Part shown: positions 1,776 through 26,223 of the stretch, piece after piece
How positions within the stretch are numbered: the first letter of the stretch is position 1
Layout: the number at the start of each line of letters is the position of its first letter
Source: Geotalea uraniireducens Rf4
Lineage (GTDB): Bacteria > Desulfobacterota > Desulfuromonadia > Geobacterales > Geobacteraceae
Direction of reading: 5' to 3'
DNA: 32,000 nucleotides
NCBI RefSeq assembly: GCF_000016745.1
Contig: NC_009483.1
Location: 30,001-62,000, forward strand
Program-made: the position numbers and the translations under genes
Notes under the pieces: generated by a model
Told to the model about the DNA's origin: nothing
The model's input: only the letters and a program-made list of their open reading frames with translations
Databases searched by the model: none

Positions 1776-1894
1776 CGCCGACTACCGACCGCCGACTGCC
1801 GACCGCCGACCGCCGACCGCCGACCGCCGACCGCCGACCGCCGACCGCCGACCGCCGACCGCCGACCGCCGACCGCCGACCGCCGACCGCCGTC
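1776..1894. repeat. tandem heptanucleotide array, about 17 x CGCCGAC (GTCGGCG on the transcribed minus strand)
   Basis: Counted directly. Units run in one 7-nt register from 1776; variant units TACCGAC, TGCCGAC, CGCCGTC. The last unit overlaps the U32 gene stop codon (1893-1895). Confidence 0.95.
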
Positions 1895-4271
1895 AAACCA
1901 ATCCCATCGTGAAATTGAACTCCGACGTTCCCGGTAATGCCGTGCCCCGGCTGAACGCGCCCAGTACCCTCCCCCACTCGTCCGGCGGTAGCTGGGAGAG
2001 ATCCATGACATATGAGGTGCCCCCCATTTCCTTGAGCCTCCCCTTAAAGGCGGTCAGGGAAAACATCGCGTTGGGGGTGACCACGGTGAGTCCGTCCCTG
2101 GTCGTGATCCGGTAGCCTTCGCCCCGGTCGGAGAGCACCGGCACGTCGCTGCGCACGTCCTTGATCCTGATCTTCGTGGTGATGGCCGGTACCGCGGAAT
2201 AGACCATGATCCGTCTTTTGATCGGCAGGTCTGCCGCCAGGAGCGCCGCTATGTTGTCGGAGTCGTCCTCGATATAAAGGGTGGCGGCGGTTGCTCCCAG
2301 CTCCTGCCAGCAGAGGAGCGCCTGGCTGTTGAGGGAAAAGAGCCGGTAATCGGTGGAGAGTTCTACGTCAAGCCCCTTGAGTAGCCCGAAGTGAGAGAGA
2401 TTGGCTGCCTCGAAGCGCCGGAAACCGTAATGCATGAGAACGGAGACGGCCTCCCTGAAGAAGGGGATCTCCGCCTCGAAGATGATGAACGGCAGATGCC
2501 AGATTACCTGCTGTTCGCGCCCCTTCAGCTTGCGCACGAAGAGCGGGATCTGGTGCATGTTGGCCTTTGACACCGGCAGGATGATGCTGTCGATGCTCTC
2601 CTGATGGAGCAGGTGGTAATCGCGGAGATGTTCGAGCCTCACCGCCAGTTCTTCCCGCTGGGGTCCCTTGACGGGGCGGCTGCCGACGAGCGCTGCCAGG
2701 GCCGATTTCCTGTGTTCCCGGCTCCGTTCCTTTATCTCGCCGAGCGCCTTGTCGCCAAGCCAGCGGTAGAATTCGCGGCGGATCTCCTTGAGCTGGGCGG
2801 CAGGAATCAGCACCGCCGGAAAATCGGGCGCATTCAGCGCGCTGAGGATGAAGGCAGTGTCGCCGGTCCGGCCGAACTGGGCGGCAAGCACACTTTCCAT
2901 GTCTGTGGTGCGCGCCGGTTCGAGAAGGCCCAAGTGAAATTCCCGGCATACTTCCTTTCCTGCCACTTGAGCCGTGATGCGCATGGTCTCGCCGATCAGG
3001 GCGAGGCTCAGCTCGCAGGGGAGCTTGTCTCCCTTTACCGTATCCAGCTTTTTTGCGCAGGCGTTCTCGCTCATGGTGAAGGCGGTTTCCGAGGAGACCT
3101 TGAAGACGGCGTCCCCTACCTTGAAGGGGAATGGTGACGAGGTAGTGACCAGGGATTTTTCCTTTGCCCCCTTCACCTGCTGTTTCCCCAGATAGAGTTC
3201 CTTGATGGTAAAGGCCCGGCCGGCCATGTCGCTCTTCGGCTGCACCCGCACCCGGTCCCCCACATGGAGCCGATCCTTGGTTTCAAAGGTGATCCGGTTG
3301 CCGTTCAGGGACTTTATCGTTCCGAGAAAGCGGCCGGTCGCCCCTTTGAGCGACGGGGTGGCGATGTCGGTCGGTGTGTGGGAGGCGAGGAACCCCTTGG
3401 TCGGCACCCGGCCGAAGGAGAGCTTCAGGAGTTCCTTGGCCTCGGCCACTGCCTCGCTGCGCTTGCCTTCCGGGGCATCCAGTACCAACCGGTAGGCCCC
3501 CACCACGCTCGCCACGTACTCGGCGGACTTCATCCGCCCCTCGATCTTCAGCGAGGCAACCTTTGCTTCGATCAGCTGCGGGATCATGTCGATGCTGGAA
3601 AAATCGTTGGTGGAGAAGTAGTACCCTTCCTTGCCCCGGTAGGTGTACTGCCTGCGACAGGGCTGGGCGCAACGCCCCCGGTTGCCGCTGTGGCCGCCGA
3701 GAAACGAGGAGAAATAGCATTGCCCGGAGAAGGAGAAGCAGAGGGCGCCATGGATGAAACACTCGATCTCGGCCCGGGATGCGGCAACGATGGCCTTGAT
3801 CTCGTCGATGTGCAGCTCGCGGGCCAGCACCACCCGCTCGAAGCCGAGCTCCTCCAGTTGTTTGACGCCGAGCGAATTGTGGATGGTCATCTGGGTCGAG
3901 GCGTGGAGCGGGATACCGGGGAAATGTTCACGGATCAGCCGGGCCGTTGCCATGTCCTGGAGGATCACCCCGTCGACCCGCATCCCCTCCAGGGCGGCGA
4001 GCAGGTCCACCAGCTGCGGCAGCTCGTTCTCCTTGATCAGGGTGTTGATGGTGACGTATAGCTTTCTTCCCTGGCAGTGGGCGTAGGCGAGCATCCGCTC
4101 CATCTGGGCGAGGGAGAAGTTCTTCGCCTTAGCCCGGGCGGAAAAATCGTGCAGGCCCGCATAGACGGCATCCGCCCCCTTTTCCATGGCGGCAAAGAAG
4201 GCCTCCAGCGACCCGGCCGGGGAGAGGAGTTCAGGCTTTTTCATGGTTTTGCTGATTATTGTTTTGGACAT
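1893..4271 (-). CDS. peptidase U32 family protein, long form (792 aa) with a C-terminal extension
   Basis: N-terminal KPELLSPAGSLEAFFAAMEKGADAVYAG, ASTQMTIHN, and the Cys-rich segment HGALCFSFSGQCYFSS...GNRGRCAQPCRR are typical U32 (collagenase-like, RlhA/TrhP/UbiU-V superfamily). Confidence 0.85.
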   Translation of the reverse strand: MSKTIISKTMKKPELLSPAGSLEAFFAAMEKGADAVYAGLHDFSARAKAKNFSLAQMERMLAYAHCQGRKLYVTINTLIKENELPQLVDLLAALEGMRVDGVILQDMATARLIREHFPGIPLHASTQMTIHNSLGVKQLEELGFERVVLARELHIDEIKAIVAASRAEIECFIHGALCFSFSGQCYFSSFLGGHSGNRGRCAQPCRRQYTYRGKEGYYFSTNDFSSIDMIPQLIEAKVASLKIEGRMKSAEYVASVVGAYRLVLDAPEGKRSEAVAEAKELLKLSFGRVPTKGFLASHTPTDIATPSLKGATGRFLGTIKSLNGNRITFETKDRLHVGDRVRVQPKSDMAGRAFTIKELYLGKQQVKGAKEKSLVTTSSPFPFKVGDAVFKVSSETAFTMSENACAKKLDTVKGDKLPCELSLALIGETMRITAQVAGKEVCREFHLGLLEPARTTDMESVLAAQFGRTGDTAFILSALNAPDFPAVLIPAAQLKEIRREFYRWLGDKALGEIKERSREHRKSALAALVGSRPVKGPQREELAVRLEHLRDYHLLHQESIDSIILPVSKANMHQIPLFVRKLKGREQQVIWHLPFIIFEAEIPFFREAVSVLMHYGFRRFEAANLSHFGLLKGLDVELSTDYRLFSLNSQALLCWQELGATAATLYIEDDSDNIAALLAADLPIKRRIMVYSAVPAITTKIRIKDVRSDVPVLSDRGEGYRITTRDGLTVVTPNAMFSLTAFKGRLKEMGGTSYVMDLSQLPPDEWGRVLGAFSRGTALPGTSEFNFTMGLV

Positions 4272-4288
4272 CCGTTTAGACTACCTGA

Positions 4289-4756
4289 AGGGGGAAAAAG
4301 GGTCAAGCTGGATTGTGTCGACAACAGTTTGGACAGAAAGAGAGCCGAGGGATACGCTTCAAGGCAAACGATTTCGACTGCCCTGATGATCTTCCGCGGA
4401 TCGATGGGGATGAGGCGCGGTTGCACCAGGTCCCGACCAACATCATTTCCAATGCCCTGAAATATTCGCCGAAAGAGGCCCTTGTTTCCATCGGGGCGCG
4501 GCGGGAAGCGGACAACGTCACCATCTGGATCAAGGACGAAGGGATGGGGATTCCTGCGGAATTGCATGAGAAGATATTCGAAAAATTTTATCGGGTGGAT
4601 AACACCGACCTGCGGATGATCGGCGGCACCGGTCTGGGGCTGGCGTTGGTGCGGGAAATAGTCAATGCCCACGGCGGGCGGGTCTGGGTTGAAAGCGCCG
4701 TAGGGAAGGGAAGTACATTTTTTGTGGCCCTGCCGATTGTCAAAAATGTAAGATAA
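4289..4756 (+). pseudogene. histidine kinase remnant: HATPase_c catalytic domain only, no H-box, probable internal frameshift
   Basis: N, G1 and G2 boxes are present (NIISNALKYSP, IKDEGMGIP, GGTGLGLALV). No DHp/HisKA region exists upstream because the divergent U32 gene starts at 4271. Linker-like sequence KRVKLDCVDNSLDRKRAEG lies in another frame just upstream and would join IRFKAND with a 1-nt shift near 4345. Confidence 0.55.
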
Positions 4757-4798
4757 AACATGCTGACGGTTTTCTTTGTTGATTGTCGTCGCTTACTC

Positions 4799-5287
4799 TC
4801 AGTGATTGCTTTCTTTCGACTTCCTTACCCGATGATGCCCCTTTTTCTTGGCGGCACCGGCAAGGGAGAGAATGTCGGACTGGGAAATGCGCCAGACGCC
4901 GTCTTCCTTTTGCAGCTTGAATGATCTGGTCGTATAGTCCGTGCCTGTTTGCCCGGCTTCAAAGCCGAGCTTTGCCCGCAGGGTAACGGTGCTGTCATTC
5001 CTTACGCTGACCTTGACTTCCTGCATTTTTTCCCAGCAACAGGCAGGTTTTCTGCTCGCCGAGGAAAGCTTTTTAGCGAATTGTTCCTTGCTGCTCCGTC
5101 CGCTCGCCATGGTCCGGGCGTAAAGCTCTTCGAACCTGCCATCGCGCCAGAGATCAAGGATCTCTTCAAAGCCCCGCTGCGACTCGGTCTGCAACTCCTC
5201 GGAGGACATATAAGGGGTCTTTGCCAGGGCAGGGAAAACGCTTGCCAGTGAAAGCATCAACGTGAGTACCAAGAGAACCTTGCGCAT
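4799..5287 (-). CDS. secreted hypothetical protein (162 aa)
   Basis: I trimmed ORF 4799..5473 to ATG 5287, which has a GGAGGAA Shine-Dalgarno 4 nt upstream. Signal peptide MRKVLLVLTLMLSLASVFPALA. The longer listed ORF merely reads through heptamer repeats. Confidence 0.6.
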   Translation of the reverse strand: MRKVLLVLTLMLSLASVFPALAKTPYMSSEELQTESQRGFEEILDLWRDGRFEELYARTMASGRSSKEQFAKKLSSASRKPACCWEKMQEVKVSVRNDSTVTLRAKLGFEAGQTGTDYTTRSFKLQKEDGVWRISQSDILSLAGAAKKKGHHRVRKSKESNH

Positions 5288-5355
5288 ACATTCCTCCGCT
5301 ACGTGAAATTCTGCCAATAATAGAGGAAAGACGGTTGCAGGGCAAGGGGAAAAAC

Positions 5356-5534
5356 GGTCGGCGGTCGTCAGTCGGTGGTCGGCGGTAAAACCACAAACAA
5401 TCGGCGGCCGGCGGTCGGCAGCCGGCGGTAAAACCCGACAACCAACCGCCAACCGCCACCTGCCACCTGCCACCTGCCACCTGCCACCTGCTGCCTGCCG
5501 ACTGCCGACTGCCGACTGCCGACTGCCGACCGCC
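5356..5534. repeat. composite inverted heptanucleotide arrays; probable long-stem terminator of the DAHP synthase gene
   Basis: GGTCGGC-type units at 5356-5383 and 5406-5426, each followed by GGTAAAACC. From 5448 to 5534 there are 12 in-register units (GCCAACC, 5 x GCCACCT, GCTGCCT, 4 x GCCGACT, GCCGACC), complementary to the first blocks. On the minus strand the array starts 2 nt after the stop (5537-5539) and ends in GTTTTTCCCC. Confidence 0.9.
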
Positions 5535-5536
5535 TT

Positions 5537-6556
5537 TTACAGCTCCCTCTCCGCTGCCTCGGCGAAGAGCCGCAGTTGGGCCATCATCCTTGCGAACTTG
5601 GCGGGCTTCAACGACTGCGGTCCGTCGGAGGAGGCGTGTTCCGGGTCGGGGTGCACCTCGATGATCAGGCCGTCGGCCCCGGCAGCCACGGCGGCGTAAG
5701 CCATGGGGGCAACATAGTGGTAGTTGCCGGTGCCGTGGGAGGGGTCGGCGATAATCGGCAGGTGGGTTTTTTCCTTCAGCACCGGGATCGCAGACAGGTC
5801 GAGGGTGTTGCGGGTGGCGGTCTCGAAGGTGCGGATGCCGCGTTCGCAGAGAATCACCGACTGATTCCCCTCGCTCATGATGTATTCGGCACTCATGAGG
5901 AATTCCTGGATGGTCATGGACATGCCGCGTTTCAGGAGAACAGCTTTTTTCAACTGGCCGACCTTTTTCAGCAGGGCGAAGTTCTGGGCGTTGCGCGCTC
6001 CGATTTGGAGGATGTCCGCATATTCGGCTACCAGTTCGGCGGTTTCCGGGTTGACCACCTCGGTGACGATGGGGAGACCGGTAAGGTCTCGGGCCTTGGC
6101 CAGGAGCTTCAGCCCTTCCTCTTCGAGCCCCTGGAACGAATAAGGGGAAGTGCGCGGTTTGAACGCCCCGCCGCGCAGTACATGGGCTCCCGCTTCCTTC
6201 ACCGCCATTGCGGAGGCGATGATCTGTTCCTCGCTTTCAACCGAACAGGGCCCGGCCATGACGATGAGCTGCTTGCCGCCGATGCTCAGCGTGTCGGTGA
6301 TGGGAATGATGCTCGACTCCTTCTTCACTTCCTTTGAGGCCAGCTTGTAGGGCTGGAGGATTGGCACCACGTTCTCCACCCCGTGCATGGATTCGATGGA
6401 CTGTAGTACCGCTTTCCCCCGTTCGTCGCCGACCGCGCCGATTACGTCCCGTGTGGCGCCGTGAATCACATGGGGCTTGTACCCCAGTTCCTTGATCCGC
6501 TTTAATACCTCGTCCTTGTCCTTTTTTACCGCCCCTGCTTTCATGACAATGATCAT
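5537..6556 (-). CDS. aroF: 3-deoxy-7-phosphoheptulonate (DAHP) synthase, type I-beta, with an N-terminal ferredoxin-like regulatory domain
   Basis: Catalytic core motifs ([37 protein letters not shown]) match the KDO8PS-related DAHPS. An extra domain of about 75 aa resembles the Thermotoga-type enzyme. I chose ATG 6556 (MIIVMKAG), which has an AAGGAGAG Shine-Dalgarno. Confidence 0.9.
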
Positions 6557-6586
6557 CCCTTTCTCTCCTTTTTTTCCGAAACGCAA

Positions 6587-6675
6587 AAGGCCGGAGGATT
6601 GCCCCCCGGCCTTGATAATTTGTTGTGCAAAAAACGAAAAAGCCGGGGGTCGGTATCCTGTCCACCCTCGGCTTT
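6587..6675 (-). promoter_or_regulatory. attenuator: two terminator-like hairpins with an alternative antiterminator pairing
   Basis: Hairpin A: AAAGCCGAGGGT (6675-6664) pairs with ACCCCCGGCTTT (6650-6639), then TTCGTTTTTTG. Hairpin B: AAGGCCGGGGG (6613-6603) pairs with CCTCCGGCCTT (6597-6587), then TTGCGTTT. The 3' arm of A pairs with the 5' arm of B (11 bp including one G-U). Confidence 0.65.
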
Positions 6676-7019: not shown

Positions 7020-7580
7020 TTGTTTAGTGATTTATGCAATAGAAGAACCTTTCTCAAAACTTCGCTACTGGGAGCCTTGGTGCTCTGCAGCGGCATGCCT
7101 GCCTTTGCCAAAGTGCCGATCGAAGAACAACTTCCGGAAGGGAAGCTTTCGCTCTACAACACCCATAACAGCGAGAGGCTTACCATAACCTACCGCAACG
7201 CTGCAGGAGATTACGATATCGGGGCTATCAATGCCCTTAACTGGATACTCCGCTGCCACTATACGCAGCAGGTGGCGGACATGGATGTCCGGGTCATCGA
7301 GTACCTCAATCTGGTGGACAAAAGGCTCGGGGGAAATAATGAAATCCACATCATTTCCGGGTACCGGTCGCCGGTGTATAATTCACTGCTCCGGCAGGAA
7401 GGGCGGCACGTTGCCAAGCACAGCCTGCATCTGAAGGGAAAGGCCATCGATATCGCCATTCCCGGGATAGGCCTGGATCGTGTGCGGCATACCGCACTGA
7501 ACCTGCGTTACGGCGGAGTCGGTTATTATCCGAAGACCGGCTTTGTCCACGTGGATTCCGGTAATTTCCGTGCCTGGTAG
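7020..7580 (+). CDS. Tat-exported DUF882 / peptidase M15A (YcbK/MepK-like) protein
   Basis: Twin-arginine signal NRRTFLKTSLLGALVL. Motifs SGYRSPVYN, HLKGKAIDI, GGVGYYPKTGFVHVDSG..RAW. I chose TTG 7020, 6-7 nt after AAGGAGGAG; the track ORF starts at 6990. Confidence 0.8.
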   Translation: MFSDLCNRRTFLKTSLLGALVLCSGMPAFAKVPIEEQLPEGKLSLYNTHNSERLTITYRNAAGDYDIGAINALNWILRCHYTQQVADMDVRVIEYLNLVDKRLGGNNEIHIISGYRSPVYNSLLRQEGRHVAKHSLHLKGKAIDIAIPGIGLDRVRHTALNLRYGGVGYYPKTGFVHVDSGNFRAW

Positions 7581-7783
7581 CCGACGATGCCGCGGCATCT
7601 CCTCCTGTTCCTCGCGCCATGCATTTTACCAACCTTCGCTCTTTCCCATGCTTTTCCATATGGCCGAGCTCTAAGTCAGAGGCGGTTTTTTTTGCTGCGC
7701 CTTTCAGGCTGGAATGGTATATTGCTGGGGACCATGAAAGTTGATGCTCTATCTCATACTGCCAAAAGACAAGGAGAAGTTTC

Positions 7784-9258: not shown

Positions 9259-9276
9259 TGGGTGAATGGAGGTTTA

Positions 9277-10569
9277 ATGATAACCCGTCGTAAAAAGGTT
9301 CTGGCCAACGGCCTGCGGGTGGTGGCGGTGGAAATGCCGCACCTGCACAGCGTTGAGATTGCAGTATACATCAGGGTCGGCGGACGCAACGACCCGAGAG
9401 AGCAGGCAGGCCTCTCCCATTTTCTTGAACACATGTTGTTTCGCGGTAATACCGATTACCCTACGAGCCTTGATCTGGAAGTGGCCTTCGACGCCATCGG
9501 CGGAAGCGTCAATGCCGCAACCGACGAGGAGAGCACCTGTTATTTTTCCCGCGTCCATCCGCGCCACGTTGAAAATGGGATACGGCTTTTTTCCTCCATG
9601 CTGCTTCGTTCAACCCTGGCCGGTATTGACATAGAAAAACGGATAATTACCGAAGAGGCGCTCGAAGATATAAATGACAGGGGGGAGGAAACCAATCCCA
9701 GCAACCTGTCGAGCAGGCTCATGTGGCCGGGTCATCCGCTCGGTGTACCGACCATCGGCTATCTGGACACCATCAGCCGGTTTACCGAGGCAGACCTGCG
9801 CGGCCACCTGGCTCACCATTACGTCCCCGGCAACGCCGTTGTGGTCGTGGCGGGGGATATCCAGGGCGAATCGGTATTTGCGGCGTGTGAAACGGCATTT
9901 GCGGAGTGGAACGGTCCGACTCCCCCTGCATCTCCGCCGGCAGAGCATAGCCAGCGCAGGGTGCAGTCATTGTTTGTCAAGGACTCCGACAGCCAGGTGA
10001 ATCTCCAGATCGCTTTCCGTGGCTTTGCCCGGCCGGACCAGAGAATCATGACGGTCAGGCTGATTCGCAGGATCCTTTGCGGCGGGGGGAGCTCCCGGCT
10101 GCACCTGCTTTTGCGGGAGAGGCTCGGCATCGTGTATTCTGTGGATGCCTCCATTTCTGCCTATGATGAAACCGGTTCTTTTTGCATTGAACTGGCCACA
10201 GCGCCGGAAAATCTGTCGTTGGCGGTGACCGAGATATTGAAGGAAACCGGGAGACTGGCGGTAGAAGGGGTGACGGACGAGGAGTTGCAGCGGGTCAAGG
10301 AGGGATATTTCTTTGATCTGGAGTACAGCCGGGACTCCACCTATGAAATGCAGGTGCGTTACGGTTGGGGAGAGTTGATGGACATCGTCCGGGAGCTGGA
10401 AGAAGACCATGCCGAGGCGACCGCAGTCACTGGGGCAACTATTCGTGCGACTGCGGAGTCACTGTTTGCGCCCCACAACATTAACCTGGTGGCGGTCGGG
10501 CCGTGGAAAGCCACCCTCAAACGGCAGGTGGAAAAAATTCTGCTAGACTATGAACGGAACTGGAGATAA
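9277..10569 (+). CDS. M16 family (pitrilysin/insulinase-like) zinc peptidase
   Basis: Inverted zinc motif HFLEHMLF (HxxEH). Length and two-domain layout fit the family. I chose ATG 9277, after GGAGG. Confidence 0.8.
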   Translation: MITRRKKVLANGLRVVAVEMPHLHSVEIAVYIRVGGRNDPREQAGLSHFLEHMLFRGNTDYPTSLDLEVAFDAIGGSVNAATDEESTCYFSRVHPRHVENGIRLFSSMLLRSTLAGIDIEKRIITEEALEDINDRGEETNPSNLSSRLMWPGHPLGVPTIGYLDTISRFTEADLRGHLAHHYVPGNAVVVVAGDIQGESVFAACETAFAEWNGPTPPASPPAEHSQRRVQSLFVKDSDSQVNLQIAFRGFARPDQRIMTVRLIRRILCGGGSSRLHLLLRERLGIVYSVDASISAYDETGSFCIELATAPENLSLAVTEILKETGRLAVEGVTDEELQRVKEGYFFDLEYSRDSTYEMQVRYGWGELMDIVRELEEDHAEATAVTGATIRATAESLFAPHNINLVAVGPWKATLKRQVEKILLDYERNWR

Positions 10570-10593
10570 GGGACTGGGAACTGGGAACTGGGG
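10570..10593. repeat. short heptamer array GGGACT GGGAACT GGGAACT GGGG
   Basis: Starts the base after the M16 stop codon (10567-10569). Four G3+ runs with 3-4 nt loops. Confidence 0.8.
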
Positions 10594-10639: not shown

Positions 10640-11023
10640 ATGGAAACTGCAATCTTACTCATGGCTCACGGGAGCCGCATTACCGAGGCGAACCATGCCG
10701 TGCATGAAATAGCCGGGATGGTGAAGCAGATGACCGGTTACGACATTGTCGAGGTGTCGTTCCGCGAGCAGCATGCGCCGAACATTCAGAAAGGGATCGA
10801 TGCCTGCGTGGCCCGGGGGGCAGAGCGGATTCTGCTCATCCCCTATTTTCTCTACATGGGGGCCCATGTGCTGGAAGACCTGCCGGCAGAGCTTGAAGAG
10901 GCCAGGGTGCGTTACCCCCGGGTGGAAATGGCGATGGGGAAACACCTGGGCGTGCATCGGAAGCTGGCCGAGATCGTCGTGGACCGGATTGCCGAATCCC
11001 TGACCGAGCAGAGGTGGTACTGA
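10640..11023 (+). CDS. cbiX: sirohydrochlorin cobaltochelatase, small CbiX form
   Basis: METAILLMAHGSR..., single 127-aa CbiX domain, first gene of the cbi run. I trimmed the track ORF to ATG 10640, after GGAG. Confidence 0.75.
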   Translation: METAILLMAHGSRITEANHAVHEIAGMVKQMTGYDIVEVSFREQHAPNIQKGIDACVARGAERILLIPYFLYMGAHVLEDLPAELEEARVRYPRVEMAMGKHLGVHRKLAEIVVDRIAESLTEQRWY

Positions 11024-11684: not shown

Positions 11685-12794
11685 ATGGCAAATAAACCTC
11701 TCAAATACGGCTATACCACCGGCGCCTGCGCTGCCGCGGCAGCGAAAGGCGCAGCGCAGATGCTGCGGGATCGACAGCTGCTCGATCACGTGGAGATCAT
11801 TCTCCCCGGTGGAGAGCTGGCAGAGTTTCAGCTGCATGGTCAAGTGCTGGGTGAAAATTCCGCTTCCTGCTACGTGATCAAGGACGCGGGAGACGATCCC
11901 GATGTGACCAACGGTGCGGAAATCCATGCCTCCGTGCTTGTCGAGACAGCGACGGACTGCGGCAAGGGCGAGGTGATTATTTCCGGCGGTACGGGGGTCG
12001 GCAGGGTGACCAAGCCGGGACTGGCCGTAGCGGTCGGCGAGTGGGCGATAAATCCGGTGCCGCGAAAGATGATCCGCCTGGTCATCCATGAGGTCTTTGC
12101 CATCCGCTGCATGCCGGCGGTCATCAGGGTGGCTGTCAGCATTCCCAACGGCGAGGAGCTTGCCAAAAAAACCCTTAATGCCCGGCTTGGCATTATCGGC
12201 GGCCTGTCCATCCTCGGCACCACCGGAATCGTCAAGCCTATTTCCGTCAAGGCCTGGACCGATACCATCGATGCCGCCATTGACGTGGCCCTGGCCTGCG
12301 GCAGTGAAACTGTCGTCCTTTCCACCGGACGGACGAGCGAGATGGTTGCGGAGAAACACTTTGGGATCGGGGATCGGGGATCGGGGATCGGGAAAGGCAT
12401 GAAGGAGGAGTCCTTCATCATGATGGGTGACCATGCGGGTTATTCCCTGGCAGCCTGCGCCCGGAAAGGGGTGAGGAGCGTCGTTGTCGCCGGCCAGTTC
12501 GCCAAGCTCTTGAAGATCGCCTGCGGCCACGAGCAGACCCACGTCGCGTCATCCGAGCTGGACCTCCGGACTCTGGCGGAATGGTGCGCCGTTGCCGATC
12601 CCAGATCCCAGATCCCCGGTTACTGCTTGAAAGCGAACACTGCCCGGCACGTACTGGAGGCTTCCGGCAACGACCCGGAGCTGATCGCTCTCGTCTGCGG
12701 CAGGGTGAGGTCGTTTGCCGAAAAGCTGGCCTCGGGCGTAGAGATAAAGGTTTTGCTGGCGGGGTATAATGGAGAAGTGTTATATTTCGGCTGA
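11685..12794 (+). CDS. cbiD: cobalt-precorrin-5B (C1)-methyltransferase, with two repeat-encoded insertions
   Basis: KYGYTTGACAAAAAKGA at the N-terminus, ILGTTGIVKPIS, MMGDHAGY. Insertions GIGDRGSGIGKG and DPRSQIP are encoded by heptamer arrays. Confidence 0.85.
   Translation: MANKPLKYGYTTGACAAAAAKGAAQMLRDRQLLDHVEIILPGGELAEFQLHGQVLGENSASCYVIKDAGDDPDVTNGAEIHASVLVETATDCGKGEVIISGGTGVGRVTKPGLAVAVGEWAINPVPRKMIRLVIHEVFAIRCMPAVIRVAVSIPNGEELAKKTLNARLGIIGGLSILGTTGIVKPISVKAWTDTIDAAIDVALACGSETVVLSTGRTSEMVAEKHFGIGDRGSGIGKGMKEESFIMMGDHAGYSLAACARKGVRSVVVAGQFAKLLKIACGHEQTHVASSELDLRTLAEWCAVADPRSQIPGYCLKANTARHVLEASGNDPELIALVCGRVRSFAEKLASGVEIKVLLAGYNGEVLYFG
12363..12392. repeat. 4 x GGGATCG (+GG) inside the cbiD coding sequence
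   Basis: Counted directly. Five G3-4 runs separated by ATC on the sense strand. Confidence 0.9.
12595..12618. repeat. CCGATC CCAGATC CCAGATC CCCC inside cbiD, reverse complement of the 12363 array type
   Basis: Counted directly. The reverse complement reads GGGG GATCTGG GATCTGG GATCGG. Confidence 0.85.
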
Positions 12795-15041: not shown

Positions 15042-15308
15042 ATGCGTTCAGTTACAGCTACGGAGCTCGCCCGCAACTTCCGGGTAACGCTCGACGCGGT
15101 AGAATACAATCATGAAGAATTTATAATCGTTCGCAACAATCATGAAGTGGCAAGAATCATCCCCGGCCCGTCAACCATGACAGCCATGGAAGCGATGGCG
15201 GATATCTACCGGACTCTGCCTGAAGAAGCTGCAGCCGGCTGGCTGAGAAATTCCCGGCAGATCAAGGATATCCTGAGCGACGAGGTGCGCGATCCATGGG
15301 ATTCCTGA
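15042..15308 (+). CDS. vapB: type II antitoxin, Phd/YefM family (VapB-like)
   Basis: N-terminus MRSVTATELARNFRVTLDAVEYNHEEFIIVRNN is typical of Phd/YefM. It overlaps the downstream PIN gene by 13 nt. Confidence 0.75.
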   Translation: MRSVTATELARNFRVTLDAVEYNHEEFIIVRNNHEVARIIPGPSTMTAMEAMADIYRTLPEEAAAGWLRNSRQIKDILSDEVRDPWDS

Positions 15309-15736
15309 TCGACACCTGTATCTGGATTGATGTTGAAAGAGGAACGCTCGCTCCTGCCGATGTAGCCGCTGTTACCGGCGAAGAACCTGTCTACCTGTCG
15401 CCGGTGACCATAGCGGAGTTGAAATTCGGTGCGGAGAACGCCAAAACCGCCGATCTCCGCCAGAAACGGCTGGCAGCACTCACGCGGCTCAAGCGAAAAC
15501 CGCTGCTCATGATCGACGAGACGACAGGTGAGATTTTTGGCGATATCGCCGCGCAGATCAGAAAACATGGCAAGCAGCATCAGTACCGGGTCCAGGATTT
15601 ATGGTTAGCCAGCCAGGCCGTACAGCACGGTTTTCGATTTCTTACCCATAACCGCAAGGACTTTGCCGACATTCCTGGACTACAGCTCATCGTTTGGAGC
15701 GATGCATTTAGCATGAAGGCGCGGCAGGGTGAATAA
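15296..15736 (+). CDS. vapC: PIN-domain ribonuclease toxin VapC
   Basis: LIDTCIWID (first acidic residue), SPVTIAELKFG, DLWLASQA, LTHNRKDF: the standard PIN/VapC layout. Confidence 0.8.
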   Translation: MGFLIDTCIWIDVERGTLAPADVAAVTGEEPVYLSPVTIAELKFGAENAKTADLRQKRLAALTRLKRKPLLMIDETTGEIFGDIAAQIRKHGKQHQYRVQDLWLASQAVQHGFRFLTHNRKDFADIPGLQLIVWSDAFSMKARQGE

Positions 15737-17901: not shown

Positions 17902-20265
17902 ATGACACAGTCTACCTTATACATTGTCGGTATCGGTCCTGGCGGCCTCAACCACATGACGTTCGAAGCACGGGATGCGCTTGAGAGGTCCCAGGTGGTG
18001 GTCGGCTACAAGACCTACCTGGACTTCATCACGCCGCTTTTGGCCGGGAAAGAGGTTGTCTCTTCCGGCATGATGAAGGAAGTGGATCGCTGCAACGAGG
18101 CGCTCGCCATTGCAGGCTCGGGCAAGACGGTTGCCCTGGTTTCCAGTGGCGATGCCGGGGTTTACGGCATGGCTGGATTGGCGTTGGAGCTGGCGGAAAA
18201 CCTGCATGATCCCCCCGAAATCATCATCGTTCCCGGTGTTTCGGCGGTGCAGGCGGCAGCCGCAGTTCTCGGCGCGCCGCTCATGCACGATTTTGCGGTA
18301 ATATCCCTTTCAGACCTGCTTACTCACTGGGATACCATCGAACGGCGCCTTGTGGCCGCGGCTGCGGCGGATTTCGTGGTTGCCCTCTACAATCCCCGCA
18401 GCAAGGGGAGAACGACGCAGATTGAATCGGCCCGAAATATCATGCTGGCGGCCCGTTCCTCCCGCACTCCCGTCGGCATTGTGCGTAATGCCTGCCGCGA
18501 CGGCGAGGAGAAGGTCGTTACGACCCTTGCAGACATGCTTTCCCACCATATCGACATGTTTTCCATAGTCATTATCGGCAATTCCGCCACCTATGAAGAT
18601 CAGAAAGGGAGGATGGTAACGCCGAGGGGGTATGAGACAGGAGCGAGGAACGAGGAGCGAGGAGCTAGGAGCGGGGAACGGGGAACGAGGGCAACAAGAG
18701 AAAACCTCAAACCTCGAACCTCGAACCTCGAACCTGCCGCGCAGCGCGCCGTGATGTTCTGCGGCACCGGGTCAGATGTGGGGAAATCCGTCCTCACCGC
18801 CGGATTGTGCCGCATTCTCAGCAGGCGCGGCATCTGCGTGGCGCCGTTCAAGTCCCAGAATATGGCTCTCAACTCGGCGGTCACCCCGGAAGGGGGGGAG
18901 ATCGGCCGGGCCCAGGCAGTGCAGGCCGAGGCATGCGGCATACCGTCCCATACGGACATGAACCCGGTCCTGTTGAAGCCCAACTCAGACACGGGGAGCC
19001 AGATCGTCGTCCAGGGGAAGGTGATCGGCAACATGCGGGTCGCGGAGTACAACGCCTACAAGCCGGAGGCGTTTGTCAAGGTGAGGGAGAGTTTCGACCG
19101 TCTCAAATCGCGCTTTGATTTTGTCGTCATCGAAGGGGCCGGAAGTATTGCCGAGATCAATCTGAAGCGCCACGACATTGCCAATCTGAAGGTGGCCGAG
19201 ATGGCCGGCTGCCCGGTGATCCTGGTGGCGGACATCGACCGGGGAGGGGTCTTCGCCCAGATCGTCGGCACTGTCGAGCTTTTGGAGCCGGCTGAGCGGG
19301 CGATGGTCAAGGGTGTCATCATCAACAAGTTCCGCGGCGATGCTTCGCTCTTGAAGCCGGGCATCGACTTTGTGGAAGGGAGGACCGGCCTGCCGGTGCT
19401 GGGTGTGGTCCCTTATTTCCAGGGTTTCCGCATTCCGGATGAGGACAGTGTCGCCCTGGAAAAGCGTGGGACCGGGGATCGTGGACCGGGGACCGGCAAG
19501 GACAAGATCCATGTCGGCGTAATCAAGCTGCCGCGGATTTCCAATTATACCGACTTCGACGTGCTGGAGAGGGAGCCGGACGTCACACTGCGCTATATCG
19601 ACAGTCCGAAGCAACTGTCCGGTCTGGACCTCCTTATCCTCCCCGGGAGCAAATCCACCATTGCCGATCTTTACTATCTGATGGAACACGGCTTGTACAA
19701 GGCGATTCGCAGCTTCAGCGGCGCGATCATGGGGATTTGCGGCGGTTACCAGATACTGGGGAGGCGGGTGCTCGATCCGTTCAACATCGAATCCGACATC
19801 AGGGAAGCCGAAGGGCTGGGCCTGCTGGATGTGGAGACGACCATGCTGATGAAGAAGGAGACCCATCAGGCCGAGGCCAGGCTTCTGCCGGGCATTGTGC
19901 CGGTTGCAGCGGATTGCGGCGAGGAACTGACTGGTTACGAAATTCACATGGGCGAAACAATCCTGGGCGCCGGGGCACGGCCGTTTGCAACGATCACCCT
20001 TCGTTCCGGCAAGGCGGTGGATGTTCAGGACGGGGCGGTTTCGCCGGACGGAAGGGTGTTCGGCACATACCTGCACGGCGTCTTCGACAACGCCGGGTTC
20101 AGATCCGCCTTTCTCAACAGGATCAGACGGGAGAAAGGGTTGCAGGAACAAAGGAAGGTCGTCATCCTGAAGGACCCCTTCGACCTGCTGGCGGCGCATC
20201 TGGAGCGGCATGTGGACATGGAGCGGCTGCTGGCGATCTGCGGCCTGGCGAATCCTGAAGAGTAG
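17902..20265 (+). CDS. cbiH/cobQ: single ORF fusing cobalt-factor III/precorrin-3B C17-methyltransferase (CbiH, about 17902-18630) to cobyric acid synthase (CobQ/CbiP, about 18745-20265)
   Basis: N-terminal LYIVGIGPGG...VPGVSA...IIGNS..MVTPRGY. C-terminal MFCGTGSDVGKSVL..., NKFRGD, PRISNYTDFD, GICGGYQ, YLHG. The linker GARNEERGARSGERGTRATRENLKPRTSNLEP is encoded entirely by a heptamer array. Confidence 0.8.
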   Translation: MTQSTLYIVGIGPGGLNHMTFEARDALERSQVVVGYKTYLDFITPLLAGKEVVSSGMMKEVDRCNEALAIAGSGKTVALVSSGDAGVYGMAGLALELAENLHDPPEIIIVPGVSAVQAAAAVLGAPLMHDFAVISLSDLLTHWDTIERRLVAAAAADFVVALYNPRSKGRTTQIESARNIMLAARSSRTPVGIVRNACRDGEEKVVTTLADMLSHHIDMFSIVIIGNSATYEDQKGRMVTPRGYETGARNEERGARSGERGTRATRENLKPRTSNLEPAAQRAVMFCGTGSDVGKSVLTAGLCRILSRRGICVAPFKSQNMALNSAVTPEGGEIGRAQAVQAEACGIPSHTDMNPVLLKPNSDTGSQIVVQGKVIGNMRVAEYNAYKPEAFVKVRESFDRLKSRFDFVVIEGAGSIAEINLKRHDIANLKVAEMAGCPVILVADIDRGGVFAQIVGTVELLEPAERAMVKGVIINKFRGDASLLKPGIDFVEGRTGLPVLGVVPYFQGFRIPDEDSVALEKRGTGDRGPGTGKDKIHVGVIKLPRISNYTDFDVLEREPDVTLRYIDSPKQLSGLDLLILPGSKSTIADLYYLMEHGLYKAIRSFSGAIMGICGGYQILGRRVLDPFNIESDIREAEGLGLLDVETTMLMKKETHQAEARLLPGIVPVAADCGEELTGYEIHMGETILGAGARPFATITLRSGKAVDVQDGAVSPDGRVFGTYLHGVFDNAGFRSAFLNRIRREKGLQEQRKVVILKDPFDLLAAHLERHVDMERLLAICGLANPEE
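18639..18736. repeat. 14 in-register heptamers: AGGAGCG family x5, GGGAACG x2, 2 degenerate, AAACCTC/GAACCTC x5
   Basis: Counted directly; 98 nt is exactly 14 x 7. Confidence 0.9.
19468..19495. repeat. GGGACCG GGGATCG TGGACCG GGGACCG inside cobQ
   Basis: Counted directly. Encodes GTGDRGPGTG in the linker before the glutamine amidotransferase domain. Confidence 0.85.
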
Positions 20266-21321: not shown

Positions 21322-21354
21322 AGCACACCAAATAATCCTAAAAACGGCAGTTAT

Positions 21355-21495
21355 GCCACAGAGCCACGGAGACACAGAGAAAATCACAGAGTATTTACAA
21401 ATAAGACCGTTCACCAAAATGGAGAAGCACAAACAAGCTGCTTAATGATGCAACCTTTCTATTTTGTTAACTCGGTGTCTCTGTGGCGCTGTGGC
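21355..21495. repeat. inverted repeat element (25-bp arms, 3 mismatches, 91-nt spacer) in the cbiB-cobD gap
   Basis: GCCACAGAGCCACGGAGACACAGAG (21355-21379) against the reverse complement of CTCGGTGTCTCTGTGGCGCTGTGGC (21471-21495). The left arm is an octamer triplet of CCACAGAG type. Confidence 0.7.
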
Positions 21496-21561
21496 AAATG
21501 CTTTTTCTGGATAATTGTGGATGATGGTTTTTTTGAGCGCATTGCGCCAAAGGATGAGCAT

Positions 21562-22635: not shown

Positions 22636-22661
22636 GCCGGAAGGAGGGGATGGTCGGGACG

Positions 22662-23492: not shown

Positions 23493-23778
23493 TAAAGGTG
23501 ACCCGTGATGCCTGGCTGTGCAGAACCATTTGCCGTCGAGTAAAAGTGCTGAAGACGAGAATCTGTTAGCAAAATACTTGCCACTTGGTCGATTGACGCT
23601 CGGTATGCGTTATCATGTCGGTTTATTTAATATTTTACGTGGGTTAAGTCAACTGCTTTCCGGTGTTGCGGCACGTAACAACGGTTTGTGTCGGTTCCAT
23701 TACGCTAAACCCCCTGTTTTTAATGGTTATATGACATCACGTCTGTTTGTATGCCTATAAGCAGGCAATCATAAAAAC

Positions 23779-23823
23779 TTGACAAGAAACGAAATAGGAT
23801 TACTTTAAAAAGAAATGATTTCT
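23779..23823 (+). promoter_or_regulatory. candidate promoter plus Fur/Zur-box-like palindrome
   Basis: TTGACA (23779-23784), 16 nt, TACTTT (23801-23806). The palindrome AGAAATGATTTCT (23811-23823) lies within a 21-nt near-palindrome just downstream of the -10. Confidence 0.45.
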
Positions 23824-23834
23824 ATTTAGTTTCT

Positions 23835-23940
23835 GTCCGAAAAGGGTGCTTGTATGCCCTGGCTGTGTCAATCTGCGGGCTTGCTTGTGCGGCGTACCGA
23901 TGTACGCCTCCGCGCAATCCCTTGATTTCCTTGCCAGGAC
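23835..23940. repeat. imperfect palindromic REP/MITE-like element (GTCC...GGAC), copy B
   Basis: Central hairpin GGCGTAC cgat GTACGCC. Shares GCGTACC..GTACGCCTC and the terminal GCC(T)AGGAC with copy A, in the same orientation. Confidence 0.55.
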
Positions 23941-23963
23941 ATAAAATCCCCGCTTTCCGAATC

Positions 23964-24008
23964 AGAAACCAATAGTTTCTCATCGGGAGTTTCCGGATGG
24001 AAACTATT
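23964..24008 (+). promoter_or_regulatory. cluster of GAAAC/GTTTC inverted repeats just upstream of zur
   Basis: AGAAAC caata GTTTCT (23964-23980), GTTTCC ggat GGAAAC, and AATAGTTTC (23971-23979) against GAAACTATT (24000-24008). These give alternative hairpins or operator half-sites. Confidence 0.4.
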
Positions 24009-24022
24009 TACTGCGGGGCAAC

Positions 24023-24451
24023 ATGTACGACCAACACTGTCAGGCGCTAAAGGGGCTGAAGCTGAAGGCCACGCCGAAAAGGCTGGCCATTCTCAGTCTG
24101 CTGGCAGAGGAATCCGCTTACGTCAGTCCGGAAGAGATCTGGCGCAAGCTTCAGGGAAAGTTCGGCCGGCTCGGCCTGCCGACAGTCTACCGCAACCTGG
24201 AGGAACTGGCTTCGGGAGGGGTCATCAGCAAGGTAATACACCCCAACCGCCAGCTCTATTACTATTTTTGCCCGAACCGCCACCATCACCACCATTTCAT
24301 CTGCATCGCCTGCAGAAAGGTCGAAGACATCGATTTTTGCGGCATGGACGAGATTGCAAAAAACATCAGCGGCACGGTGTTGTCCCATATCGTTCAAGTG
24401 AACGGTCTCTGCCACACTTGTTCGAATCAACAGGAAGGGGTAGCCCTATGA
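24023..24451 (+). CDS. zur: Fur-family metalloregulator, probably Zur
   Basis: Winged-helix N-terminus (ATPKRLAILSLL), HHHHHFIC..C and C..C metal sites. Coupled to the znu-like genes by an ATGA overlap. Confidence 0.7.
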   Translation: MYDQHCQALKGLKLKATPKRLAILSLLAEESAYVSPEEIWRKLQGKFGRLGLPTVYRNLEELASGGVISKVIHPNRQLYYYFCPNRHHHHHFICIACRKVEDIDFCGMDEIAKNISGTVLSHIVQVNGLCHTCSNQQEGVAL

Positions 24452-25398
24452 GACGATGGTTCATGGCCGCGCTTGTGCTGCCGGTGGCAATAAGCCTCTG
24501 CACGGCTTGCCATAAGCGGGAGCAAGGGGGAGCACCGGGAAAATTGAAGGTGGTCACTACCCTCTTTCCCCTGTACGATTTTGCGAAACAGATCGGCGGC
24601 AACAAGGCTGACGTGAGTCTGCTGCTTCCACCCGGCATGGAGCCCCACAGCTTCGAGCCCAAGCCCGATGACATGGTCAGGGTCAACCGGGCCGACCTGT
24701 TCATTTTTACCAACAAATACATGGAGCCGTGGGCAGCGCAGATTGTCGGCGCTCTGGACAACAAGAAAATCCTGGTGGTCGATACCAGCCGTGGAGTGAA
24801 GCTGCTCAAGGCTGGGAGCGAAGCGGCTACCGGTCACGAGGACGATGCCCACGGCCACGAGGCCGGAGGGGTGGACCCCCACATGTGGCTTGATTTCGAC
24901 AATGCCCGCCTCATGGTCGATAACATGCTCGCCGGCTTTGTCGCCAGGGACCCGGCCAACCGGGAGTATTACTCCGCCAATGCCGCTGCTTACAAGGCGC
25001 AACTGGCCGCCCTGGACCAGCGCTTCAAGGCGGGTCTTTCACAATGCGACAAAAGAGAGTTTCTCCATGGCGGCCACTTTGCCTTCGGCTATCTGGCAAA
25101 GCGCTACGGCCTTCGTTATCAATCGGCGTATGCGGTAAATGCCGACGCCGAACCGACCGCAGCCAAGCTGGCTGATCTTGTCAAGCAGATGCGGAGCTAC
25201 GGCCTGAAATACGTTTATACCGAGGAACTGCTCAACCCGAGGGTCGCTGAGACCATAGCCCGGGAAACCGGCGCCGGCCTTCTCCATCTGCACGGAGCCC
25301 ACAACATCAGCAAGGAGGACCTCGATCGAGGGGTAACGTTCATCTCCCTGATGGAGGATAATCTGAAAAACTTGAGGATTGGACTGCAATGCCGATAG
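24448..25398 (+). CDS. znuA: metal ABC transporter substrate-binding protein (ZnuA-like, His/Asp-rich loop)
   Basis: Signal peptide. KVVTTLFPLYDF and the loop GHEDDAHGHEAGGVDPHMW are typical of zinc-specific cluster A-I binding proteins. I trimmed the track ORF to ATG 24448. Confidence 0.75.
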   Translation: MRRWFMAALVLPVAISLCTACHKREQGGAPGKLKVVTTLFPLYDFAKQIGGNKADVSLLLPPGMEPHSFEPKPDDMVRVNRADLFIFTNKYMEPWAAQIVGALDNKKILVVDTSRGVKLLKAGSEAATGHEDDAHGHEAGGVDPHMWLDFDNARLMVDNMLAGFVARDPANREYYSANAAAYKAQLAALDQRFKAGLSQCDKREFLHGGHFAFGYLAKRYGLRYQSAYAVNADAEPTAAKLADLVKQMRSYGLKYVYTEELLNPRVAETIARETGAGLLHLHGAHNISKEDLDRGVTFISLMEDNLKNLRIGLQCR

Positions 25399-26141
25399 AA
25401 GCGCTGTCAGTGCAAGGGCTTTTTTCAGGATACCAAGGCGCCGATGTCCTGCAGGATATCTCGTTTACGGTCATGCCGGGCGATTATGTCGGCGTTGTCG
25501 GGCCGAATGGCTCCGGCAAGAGCACCCTGATCAAGACGATTCTCGGCCTGCTCGAACCGGAGCGCGGCTCGATAACGCTTTTCGGCACCCCCTTCAGCAG
25601 CTTCCGCGACTGGCGCCGGATCGGCTACCTCCCCCAGGGGTTGCAGTTTTTCAACCCGCATTTCCCTGCCACGGTTGCCGAGATTGTGCGGCTCGGCAGG
25701 CTTGCGGGGAAGAAATTCCCGAAGCGTTTCGACAAAAACGATCAGGTTGCGGTTGAGCGTACCCTGCACTGGATGGATATTTGCAGCATCAAAGACAAGC
25801 TGATCGGCGAGCTGTCGGGCGGGTTGCGGCAACGGGTCCTCCTTGCCAGGGCCCTCGTCAACGAACCGGAGCTCCTGGTTCTGGACGAACCGACAACCGC
25901 CCTCGATCCCGAAACGAGGGAACATTTTTACCAGCTGATCTATGACATGAACCGGGAGCGGAAAACGACGGTCATCCTCGTCACCCACGACACCGGCACC
26001 ATCGGCCGATACGCGTCGCGGCTTCTCTATCTGGACAAGCGGCTCGTTTTTTACGGCGGATTCGACGATTTCTGCATGTCGGCGGAAATGACCGGTTTTT
26101 TCGGCGAACACGCCCAACATGTGGTCTGTCACAGGCATTAA
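25389..26141 (+). CDS. znuC: metal ABC transporter ATP-binding protein
   Basis: Walker A GPNGSGKST, signature LSGGLRQR, Walker B LLVLDEP. Confidence 0.8.
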   Translation: MPIEALSVQGLFSGYQGADVLQDISFTVMPGDYVGVVGPNGSGKSTLIKTILGLLEPERGSITLFGTPFSSFRDWRRIGYLPQGLQFFNPHFPATVAEIVRLGRLAGKKFPKRFDKNDQVAVERTLHWMDICSIKDKLIGELSGGLRQRVLLARALVNEPELLVLDEPTTALDPETREHFYQLIYDMNRERKTTVILVTHDTGTIGRYASRLLYLDKRLVFYGGFDDFCMSAEMTGFFGEHAQHVVCHRH

Positions 26142-26146
26142 CAACA

Positions 26147-26223
26147 GGTTCGAGGTTCGAGGTTCGAGGTTCGAGGTTCGAGGTTCGAGGTTGGTTTTTA
26201 ATGTAGAACGTTGAACGTAGAAC
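26147..26223. repeat. 11 in-register heptamers: 6 x GGTTCGA, GGTTGGT, TTTTAAT, GTAGAAC, GTTGAAC, GTAGAAC
   Basis: Counted directly. Begins 5 nt after the znuC stop and ends 18 nt before the znuB ATG. GGTTCGA is the reverse complement of the GAACCTC unit at 18.7 kb. Confidence 0.9.

Follow-up and report, generated by a model that had tools for sequence, protein, structure and literature searches.

The stretch of DNA analyzed here, referred to as the window, comprises 32,000 nucleotides (nt) of Geotalea uraniireducens Rf4 (contig NC_009483.1, positions 30,001 to 62,000, renumbered from 1). It carries the anaerobic cobalamin (cbi/cob) cluster of a Geotalea-like member of the Geobacteraceae, and tandem arrays of 7-nt units form one family that occurs both at its gene junctions and inside its cobalamin genes, as had been proposed in a first-pass annotation of this sequence. 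The cluster is bordered by genes for a U32-family protein, DAHP synthase, a Zn/Mn ABC transporter, and signaling functions. Genes lie on the plus strand from about 7 kb onward and mostly on the minus strand at 334-6586, within which an open reading frame (ORF) for a HATPase_c domain (4313-4756) is on the plus strand. Two plus-strand genes host translated arrays: cbiD (11685..12794, 369 amino acids [aa]), with a long-range pair of arms, and a gene for a CbiH-CobQ fusion (17902..20265, 787 aa; CbiH at aa 6-245 and CobQ at aa 283-780), with three arrays. This fusion is common to >100 Geobacteraceae proteins, most of those listed being 759-818 aa long. The nearest named relatives are Geotalea daltonii (77% at the aa level) and Geotalea toluenoxydans (75%), and the nearest contig is a groundwater metagenome-assembled genome (MAG; 94% aa and ~95% DNA identity), which is locus L002 among our comparison loci, all given L-numbers. 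Orthologous loci were taken from 20 Geobacteraceae species, and gene calls used for array positions in them were passed through a filter based on third-codon-position GC content.

At least 10 period-7 arrays are present in the window, 10 being the number with ≥3 copies. The matches of Tandem Repeats Finder (TRF) cover 1776-1892 (16.6 copies), 5355-5534 (several sub-arrays), 10573-10592, 12363-12392, 12597-12616, 18639-18690 with 18703-18735, 19468-19496, and 26146-26192 with 26203-26223. The first-pass annotation spoke of nine loci and listed eight, each of which was recovered by TRF and by direct reading. Its statement that the arrays are too frequent for chance also held: six perfect arrays of ≥3 units occur at period 7, compared with none at periods 4-6 or 8-12 in the window, and 30 dinucleotide-preserving shuffles of it gave no such array at period 7. 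At least eight unrelated unit sequences coexist within these 32 kb. CRISPR arrays were rejected, as they had been in the first-pass annotation, since the units run head to tail without spacers. No match to Rfam 15 at gathering score was obtained anywhere in the window.

Four of the sites are operon spacers, in which the arrays begin 0, 2, 0, and 4 nt past the upstream stop codon (at 1893-1895, 5537-5539, 10567-10569, and 26139-26141), within the 0 to 5 nt noted in the first-pass annotation, and lie ~19-68 nt before the next start. On the minus strand, a solitary array (1776..1892) with 16.6 copies of GGCGGTC on the sense strand directly follows the TGA of the U32-family gene (1893-4271) and stops 36 nt short of the ATG of a conserved hypothetical gene (1207-1740). 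A 271-aa ORF on the plus strand (1300-2115) that runs across this array looks like a repeat-translation artifact. Also on the minus strand, G-rich 5' arms reading (GGCAGTC) x5.7, (GGCAGGT) x6.4, and (GGCGGTT) x2.4 on the sense strand (5442..5534) start 2 nt past the TAA of the DAHP synthase gene (5537-6586); they constitute one array whose units diverged and were then reamplified. Two C-rich 3' arms follow, an inner one (5401..5429), whose partner in a nested fold is the GGCGGTT stretch of the 5' arm, and an outer one (5355..5386), whose partner is formed by the GGCAGTC units and which precedes U5, giving a terminator-like arrangement. One arm pair lies inside the loop of another at 5355-5534, which gives the impression of an element that arose in, or inserted into, one already there. 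On the plus strand, a solitary G-rich array of three GGGACTG/GGGAACT units with a GGGGAAAAAAGCC tail (10570..10593) begins 0 nt past the TAA that closes the M16 peptidase gene (9262-10569), with 47 nt left between its end and the cbiX ATG (10640). The fourth spacer, also on the plus strand, holds (AGGTTCG) x6.7 (26146..26192), 4 nt past the TAA of a znuC-like ABC ATPase gene (25389-26141) and followed by U5, and then three GTAGAAC/GTTGAAC units (26203..26223) ending 19 nt before the ATG of an ABC-3 permease gene. The latter units are what is left of the 3' arm in a GTTCTAN/NTAGAAC pair, which L002 has in intact form. Short-read assemblies of the source organism break inside the arrays at 26146 and 1776: L001 ends 31 nt past the znuC-like stop (window position 26172), and the start of a Logan contig of SRR29904083 lies 80 nt upstream from the gene at window position 1740.

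The other four sites are translated in frame, in keeping with what the first-pass annotation had reported, and all four are on the plus strand. In CbiD, (GGGATCG) x4.3 with a GGGAAAGGC tail (12363..12392) encodes aa 227-236 (GIGDRGSGIG) and is the 5' arm of the long-range pair; it is an insertion relative to array-free homologues. Its complementary 3' arm, (GATCCCA) x2.9 (12597..12616; aa 305-311), lies ~200 nt downstream and overwrites a variable loop with the length unchanged. The CbiH-CobQ linker (aa 246-278) contains a 5' arm of AGGAGCG/AGGAACG/GGGAACG units (x7.4; 18639..18690), translated as GARNEERGARSGERG, and a 3' arm, (AACCTCG) x4.7 (18703..18735), translated as NLKPRTSNLEP. A solitary (GGGACCG) x4.1 (19468..19496) encodes aa 522-531 (GTGDRGPGTG) in the interdomain linker of CobQ. 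All four are regions that vary in length or composition among homologues. RTSNLEP-type peptides, which the first-pass annotation had placed in hypothetical proteins as translation artifacts of such arrays, are translated array sequence in the CbiH-CobQ linkers of many Geobacteraceae.

Most of the arrays pair with a complementary array nearby, and hairpin formation, one of the roles first suggested for them, is supported by the predicted folds of both the window sites and the orthologous linkers. Folds were scored against 200 shuffles, with same-length coding controls for the linkers. The hairpins at the window sites have z-scores of -2.9 to -8.2, among them the nested double hairpin at 5288-5540 on the minus strand (-125.6 kcal/mol; z -4.0; 0 of 200 shuffles) and the CbiH-CobQ linker hairpin (z -3.0 to -3.5; 0 of 200). 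In 11 of the 20 Geobacteraceae CbiH-CobQ fusions, the linker consists of a G-rich arm of heptamers followed, after a loop, by its C-rich complement (z -2.7 to -8.3; 0 to 2 of 200 shuffles), with the coding controls averaging -0.3. The unit pair differs by species, with at least six pairs represented (CGAGGAR/CCTCGAA, GGGACCR/GTCCCCR, CGAGGAA/CCTCGTT, GGTTCGA/TCGAACY, GAAGGCT/CCTTCAG, and AGTTTCG/CTCAAAA), and hence the pairing has been kept while the sequence was replaced. The first-pass annotation was correct that units recur in opposite orientation at different loci, but the complementarity that matters is local and involves the two arms of one site. Its claim that the 7-nt register survives changes of unit proved weaker than stated: within 5442-5534 and 18639-18690, it is explained by the ordinary evolution of a single array with diverged and reamplified units, and across loops it has little content because a period-7 array can be read in any phase.

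Over all loci, 45 complementary pairs were found, with median arm lengths of 31 and 30 nt, and the 33 close pairs among them use 22 distinct 5'-arm units. Of the two possible orders, G-rich arm first is seen in 31 pairs and C-rich arm first in 7, the latter having marginal skew or being doubtful pairs >230 nt apart. A rule that places the G+T-rich arm first was also tried and is weaker (24 versus 6). Because a G-rich-first order reads alike on both strands, it constrains origin or function and identifies no strand. In L015, unit variants alternate along one arm, and the partner arm mirrors their pattern. The two CbiD arms form a 25-bp long-range stem in the window (z -2.9), and this pair was tested with 78 distinct loci, most of them from a metagenome scan, of which 15 have the site-1 array, 17 the site-2 array, and 9 both. 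In an array-only test, the cognate arms were complementary in five of the eight unique loci with both arrays (permutation P = 0.024). Duplex energies computed over GC-rich regions of 100-140 nt did not separate cognate from noncognate arm pairs, and the array-only test was used instead.

The placement of the intergenic elements is narrow. In all 12 well-called cases, the first arm starts 0-10 nt past a stop codon, and junctions without an element are merely ~14-20 nt long. The usual intergenic order, seen in L019, L023, L002, and L015, is a stop codon, an arm of 4.4 units after ~5 nt, a loop, a complementary arm of 4.4 units, the Shine-Dalgarno (SD) sequence, and a start codon. Intrinsic (Rho-independent) terminators were rejected as a general identity, since most intergenic elements run straight into the SD sequence and U-runs are exceptional; within the window, a U-run after a stem is found at 5355-5534 and 26146-26192 only (U5 each). 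Arrays that are truly solitary are G-rich on the sense strand in every case, and their G bias follows transcription rather than replication, because the minus-strand site at 1776-1892 is also G-rich on its sense strand.

Comparison of relatives shows turnover at these sites. Copy numbers at orthologous intergenic sites vary, with 6.7 copies in the 26146 array versus 12.7 in L003 and 2.9 copies at 10570 versus 4.3 in L002. Between the window and L002, the seventh base has changed simultaneously in several units of both CbiD arms. The site at 19468 has orthologous arrays in L002, L010, L012, L014, and L021, and no arrays are present at the CbiH-CobQ linker or the CbiD sites in the Geomonas/Citrifermentans clade. 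The first-pass annotation had proposed slippage-prone contingency switches, that is, phase variation of the flanking or host genes, and the intergenic copy-number differences between relatives would fit such switches, as would the fact that 7 is not a multiple of 3, so that a single unit gained or lost shifts the frame. The reading frame is nevertheless kept across the arrays in 20 of 20 Geobacteraceae CbiH-CobQ fusions, the cbiD genes of the window and of L002 differ in length by a gap of 6 nt and not 7 nt, the hosts have housekeeping biosynthetic rather than surface or restriction functions, and the intergenic arrays follow stop codons rather than occupying promoters or 5' coding regions. 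Phase variation is thus very improbable, a conclusion that was likewise reached by Rehm 2015 (PMC4692102) for related repeats. Exact-protein look-ups recovered no strain-level copy-number alleles (one contig ends inside an array), and a metagenome scan for flank plus first unit found nothing.

Arrays of period 7 also have a preferred length. In the Geobacteraceae and a few array-rich outgroup genomes, they peak at 28-35 nt (~31 nt, or four to five units), whereas arrays of periods 6, 8, and 9 show a plain decay with length, as does period 7 in 1.04 Mb of other genomes. Only 2 period-7 arrays of ≥24 nt were found in this 1.04 Mb of array-poor outgroup DNA, and the other Geobacteraceae loci have 60 with ≥3 copies per 395 kb. 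A four-unit preference could be explained by G-quadruplexes, formed in DNA or RNA near the end of an ORF by four G-tracts, and the first-pass annotation had named two candidates that do fit the G3+N1-7 x4 motif, 10570-10593 and 12363-12386. The GGGACCG x4.1 array at 19468 and the G. metallireducens family discussed below also have about four G-tracts, and the solitary arrays are sense G-rich just past stop codons, like the repeats for which G-quadruplex formation was demonstrated by circular dichroism in Rehm 2015 (PMC4692102). As a general explanation, this idea did not hold up. The motif occurs in the window at those two places only, most window arrays have no G-run longer than GG or none at all (GGCGGTC, AGGTTCG, AGGAGCG, and GTAGAAC), and competition would come from the complementary C-rich partner that most G-rich arms possess. 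Furthermore, of the 48 arrays with GG-free units (ATTTACG, AGATGCA, GTTCTAC, and others), 25 are in the 28-35 nt mode, and since the mode is equally strong for such units, G-quadruplexes are not supported as the general cause of the four-unit rule. Regulatory G-quadruplex repeats are therefore quite unlikely as an account of the arrays as a whole, and G-quadruplexes may be limited to solitary arrays of the GGGA type.

Whether the structure acts in RNA is less clear-cut. The repeats (GGCGGUC)n, (AGGUUCG)n, and (GUUCUAG)n are self-complementary through G·U pairs alone, and accordingly, 26146-26192 folds on itself as sense RNA. For 1776-1892, the fold of the sense RNA is about -80 to -82 kcal/mol (z -6.7) versus -22 (z +2.0) for the antisense RNA, and the other long intergenic arrays give -52 versus -21, -52 versus -29, and -79 versus -55 kcal/mol. 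For these long intergenic arrays, such predicted folds make a transcript-level structure plausible. A general bias toward folding as sense RNA was rejected, as the split of 27 versus 21 over 52 array clusters is that of coding controls (117 versus 91).

Taken together, the arrays are, on balance, probably heptamer elements of a REP-like, hairpin-forming kind that sit at the boundaries of cistrons and domains and evolve through concerted turnover. An element would consist of one arm of ~4-5 units (~31 nt), either alone and G-rich on the sense strand or as an inverted pair, in which a G-rich arm and then a C-rich arm would form a stem of 25-35 bp with a mismatch at about every seventh position. 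Elements would persist only where 30-200 extra bases are tolerated, namely, in short cotranscribed spacers and in surface loops or interdomain linkers. A spacer copy would span the interval from a few nt past the stop to just before the next ribosome-binding site, and a loop or linker copy would be translated as a low-complexity peptide. Turnover would be fast, with units mutating, reamplifying, or converting and both arms changing together, so that period and pairing would outlive the sequence. As a folded element would keep the stop and the next start close to each other, self-pairing insertions may be the ones that are tolerated. By analogy with REP sequences, the likeliest role would be that of a cis-acting stem-loop at cistron boundaries, which might shield the upstream segment at its 3' end, cause the inserted sequence to loop out, or dampen expression by attenuation. 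Copies inside genes are probably passengers that the host proteins tolerate.

Several observations weigh against this interpretation. There is no overall strand bias, with the 27 versus 21 split matching the controls, and several linker hairpins fold slightly better as antisense, so that structure could matter in DNA or not at all. The CbiD pair is complementary in just five of eight loci, with L120, L144, and L092 as counterexamples; the linker of L012 has two arrays that are mutually noncomplementary; and no hairpin is found at three solitary arrays (10570, z +0.7; 19468; and L002 2049). Few stems are followed by a U-run, and termination is thus not general. Lastly, arm covariation can arise without selection, by arm-to-arm gene conversion or template switching.

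According to the main rival explanation, the arrays are neutral or selfish microsatellites without function. Slippage would favor 7-nt units, as proposed in Mrazek 2007, and arrays would spread where they are harmless; conversion or quasi-palindrome template switching would keep the arms complementary, and purifying selection on reading frame, SD sequence, and unpaired C-rich RNA would set position and orientation. The absence of an overall sense-strand folding bias fits this well, and the hosts have unrelated housekeeping functions, with the sites being array free in Geomonas and Citrifermentans without visible consequence. The concerted unit change between 95%-identical genomes and the mirrored variant pattern in L015 are what copying predicts, short junctions force any insert next to a stop codon, and no regulatory role was found in Rehm 2015 (PMC4692102). 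On the other hand, simple slippage predicts a decay with length, not the observed peak at 28-35 nt, and single-unit slippage is barred in coding regions, yet the intragenic arrays keep a perfect 7-nt period and turn over. Linker arrays with changing units persist across ~70%-identical proteins and in L024, a 43% GC deltaproteobacterial MAG (53% identical) that has 15 arrays in 19.7 kb and complementary AT-rich heptamer arms in its linker; this is long for a neutral microsatellite. The arm order of 31 versus 7 would need an additional selective argument. We regard this function-free model as possible, without considering it likely.

Another rival, and one of the roles first suggested, is binding by a protein, here an oligomeric one that reads the 7-nt period, with an arm of about four units corresponding to one assembly on RNA (cold-shock, CsrA, or HutP-like proteins) or DNA (ribbon-helix-helix proteins). 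Repeats with a 7-nt spacing are bound by HutP and by the omega repressor, the latter as ribbon-helix-helix dimers on heptads. The ~31-nt arm is unit independent and common across phyla, which suggests a ruler, and many 5' arms have repeated GGA motifs; for TAACTGA repeats, MacGregor 2015 (PMC4679880) proposes S1, Csp, or CsrA. A sequence-specific binder is hard to reconcile with at least eight unrelated units in the window and 22 among the close pairs, and the loci examined contain no candidate gene with linkage to the arrays. We therefore consider protein binding improbable.

Heptamer arrays of ~4.3-4.7 copies, often in inverted arm pairs, cluster in a few unrelated genomes. These are L024 (over its whole locus), anammox Planctomycetes, which share the unit ATTTACG/CGTAAAT, and Dialister and Fusicatenibacter, with GTGACTG and TAGGGAT as shared units; further arrays were located at L028 3089-3155, L038 8600-8667 and 10799-10876, L079 883-1994, and L090 959-8101, as well as in L041, L047, and L057. 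The L038 array at 10799-10876 ("Candidatus Brocadia") is a GGGATCA/CCTGACC heptamer hairpin inside cobQ, at roughly the interdomain-linker position of the window array at 19468. The cobQ loci of enterobacterial, streptococcal, and Paenibacillus genomes contain no heptamer arrays. As a tentative and rather unlikely extension, ~31-nt arms of about four heptamers may form a cross-phylum, sequence-independent class made by a dedicated process and not by generic slippage or G-quadruplexes. Its members would be the Geobacteraceae, the low-GC deltaproteobacterial MAG, the anammox Planctomycetes, Dialister, and Fusicatenibacter, and the published Xanthomonas and cyanobacterial repeats would belong to it. 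The fixed period, the arm length, the G-rich-first order, and the persistence at boundaries despite unit turnover would then reflect that process. As a candidate, both 3' ends of a break could be extended by templated addition of repeats and then rejoined, and exactly a G-rich-first inverted pair would result; a ruler-like protein or recombination system is an alternative candidate.

Other features were noted in the locus and its relatives. In some relatives, another type of hairpin made of C-runs and G-runs (CCCCCCTG...CAGGGGGG and GGGAGAAGGG...CCCTCTCCC) replaces the arrays, at L005 17675-17740, L009 4890-4950, and L010 17080-17290, which suggests a second family of junction elements. Small accessory genes at the junctions of the cbi cluster also differ from relative to relative: the window has a PIN-domain gene (15296-15736, plus strand), L002 two MNT/HepT pairs (4294-4942 and 7043-7673), G. 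daltonii KilA-N, and L009 (9589-9963) and L010 (7087-7560 and 9532-9960) PDDEXK_3 and DUF559 genes, with L005 7449-8303 also compared. The cbi operon spacers that carry arrays seem to be insertion hot spots in general. The plus-strand ORF at 4313-4756 (147 aa), between the U32-family gene and the arrays at 5.3-5.5 kb, encodes a histidine kinase HATPase_c domain alone (E value of 2e-30) on the strand opposite to its surroundings and may be an orphan fragment; for its minus-strand neighbors, ORFs 4256-4672 and 4799-5287, no family was matched. The M16 peptidase gene contains a 21-nt unit twice in tandem (9868-9908; 85% match), which is kept at L002 1345-1385 and seems to be a coding repeat of the ordinary sort, without relation to the heptamer arrays.

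Any explanation of the arrays must account for a four-unit rule that is independent of G-tracts, for arms that change together, and for the G-rich arm coming first. The locus described here allows same-site comparison over many species at one protein linker, one pair of enzyme loops, and two operon junctions. For annotation, the arrays explain the GTGDRGP and NLEPRTS peptides in Geobacteraceae proteins, spurious ORFs over arrays, and assembly breaks.

Among known systems, the REP/BIME/REPIN elements (repetitive extragenic palindromic sequences, bacterial interspersed mosaic elements, and REP doublets) of enterobacteria and pseudomonads are short, abundant, and hairpin forming, lie in operon spacers and 3' untranslated regions, often as inverted pairs, and stabilize upstream mRNA. 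Liang, Rudd, and Deutscher reportedly found in 2015 that a REP within ~15 nt of a stop codon lowers translation of the gene that precedes it. As imperfect palindromes, REPs have a genus-specific conserved sequence; they are mobilized by REP-associated tyrosine transposases (RAYTs) and are not known from inside coding regions. Hairpin pairs are present among the elements described here, but the arms are tandem heptamers, several copies are intragenic, and a genus-wide consensus is absent. No RAYT (IS200/IS605-like) transposase gene is present in the annotation of the window.

Heptanucleotide repeats of bacteria have been on record since 1990, and we know of no function or mechanism that has been established for them. 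One window-type unit, GGGACTG, resembles that of the cyanobacterial short tandemly repeated repetitive (STRR) sequence STRR1 (CCCCAGT/ACTGGGG). Like the window arrays, the cyanobacterial STRR heptamers and the TAACTGA repeats are tandem heptamers with several unit families per genome, mostly intergenic and restricted to some genomes; TAACTGA repeats lie just upstream of start codons, whereas the window arrays lie just after stops. In MacGregor 2015 (PMC4679880), which summarizes Mrazek 2007, heptanucleotides are described as the commonest of 5-11 nt repeats, and polymerase slippage is given as the proposed cause; covarying arms at orthologous sites and translated copies do not feature in those descriptions.

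The closest precedent is in G. metallireducens, for which Aklujkar 2009 (PMC2700814) listed 49 elements with "four tandem heptanucleotide repeats" (GGGACCG), designated Gmet_H4, as putative regulatory RNA elements. In Table S4 of that work, Gmet_H409 and H410 lie within cbiD, H411-H413 lie within the cbiH-cobQ fusion gene, with H413 located within cobQ, and H403 lies in another fusion-protein linker. In the Gmet_H4 alignment (PMC2700814), many copies have a stop codon just upstream, and there are a GGRAAA(A/G)SC tail and 11 adjacent pairs, all in the order (+) then (-). The likeness to the window arrays extends over orthologous host sites, about four units, a post-stop start, (+)/(-) pairs, and placement between co-oriented genes. 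The Gmet_H4 unit is that of the window array at 19468-19496, and those at 12363 (GGGATCG) and 10570 (GGGAACT) are close variants, while the other window units are unrelated; correspondingly, the Gmet_H4 tail is matched by GGGGAAAAAAGCC after 10570 and GGGAAAGGC after 12363 but is missing after non-GGGA units. Gmet_H4 has one dominant unit in its 49 listed copies, whereas the window has at least eight units in 32 kb, including a 16.6-copy array, and the Gmet_H4 elements were presented in PMC2700814 without an analysis of arm pairing, covariation, or length.

Similarly, Rehm 2015 (PMC4692102) described GGGNATC and GGGGA(C/T)T heptamers in Xanthomonas and Nostoc that prefer four units, lie just past stop codons on the coding strand, are underrepresented in coding regions, and vary in length and sequence between close relatives. 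These repeats include inverted copies able to form stem-loops, and their unit preference and position have a counterpart in the 28-35 nt mode and the distance of 0-10 nt from the stop of the elements described here. That study attributes the four-unit preference to G-quadruplexes, whereas here the mode holds for GG-free units, paired arms dominate, and several copies are translated; four or more G3 tracts with short loops, as in those repeats, are found in 2 window arrays only (10570 and 12363). The arrays in the window are not a new class but belong to the published bacterial heptanucleotide repeats, a point that the first-pass annotation had missed, and to this class our analysis adds a length mode that is independent of GG, pairing with the G-rich arm first, covarying linker hairpins, stop-adjacent placement, and maintenance of the reading frame.

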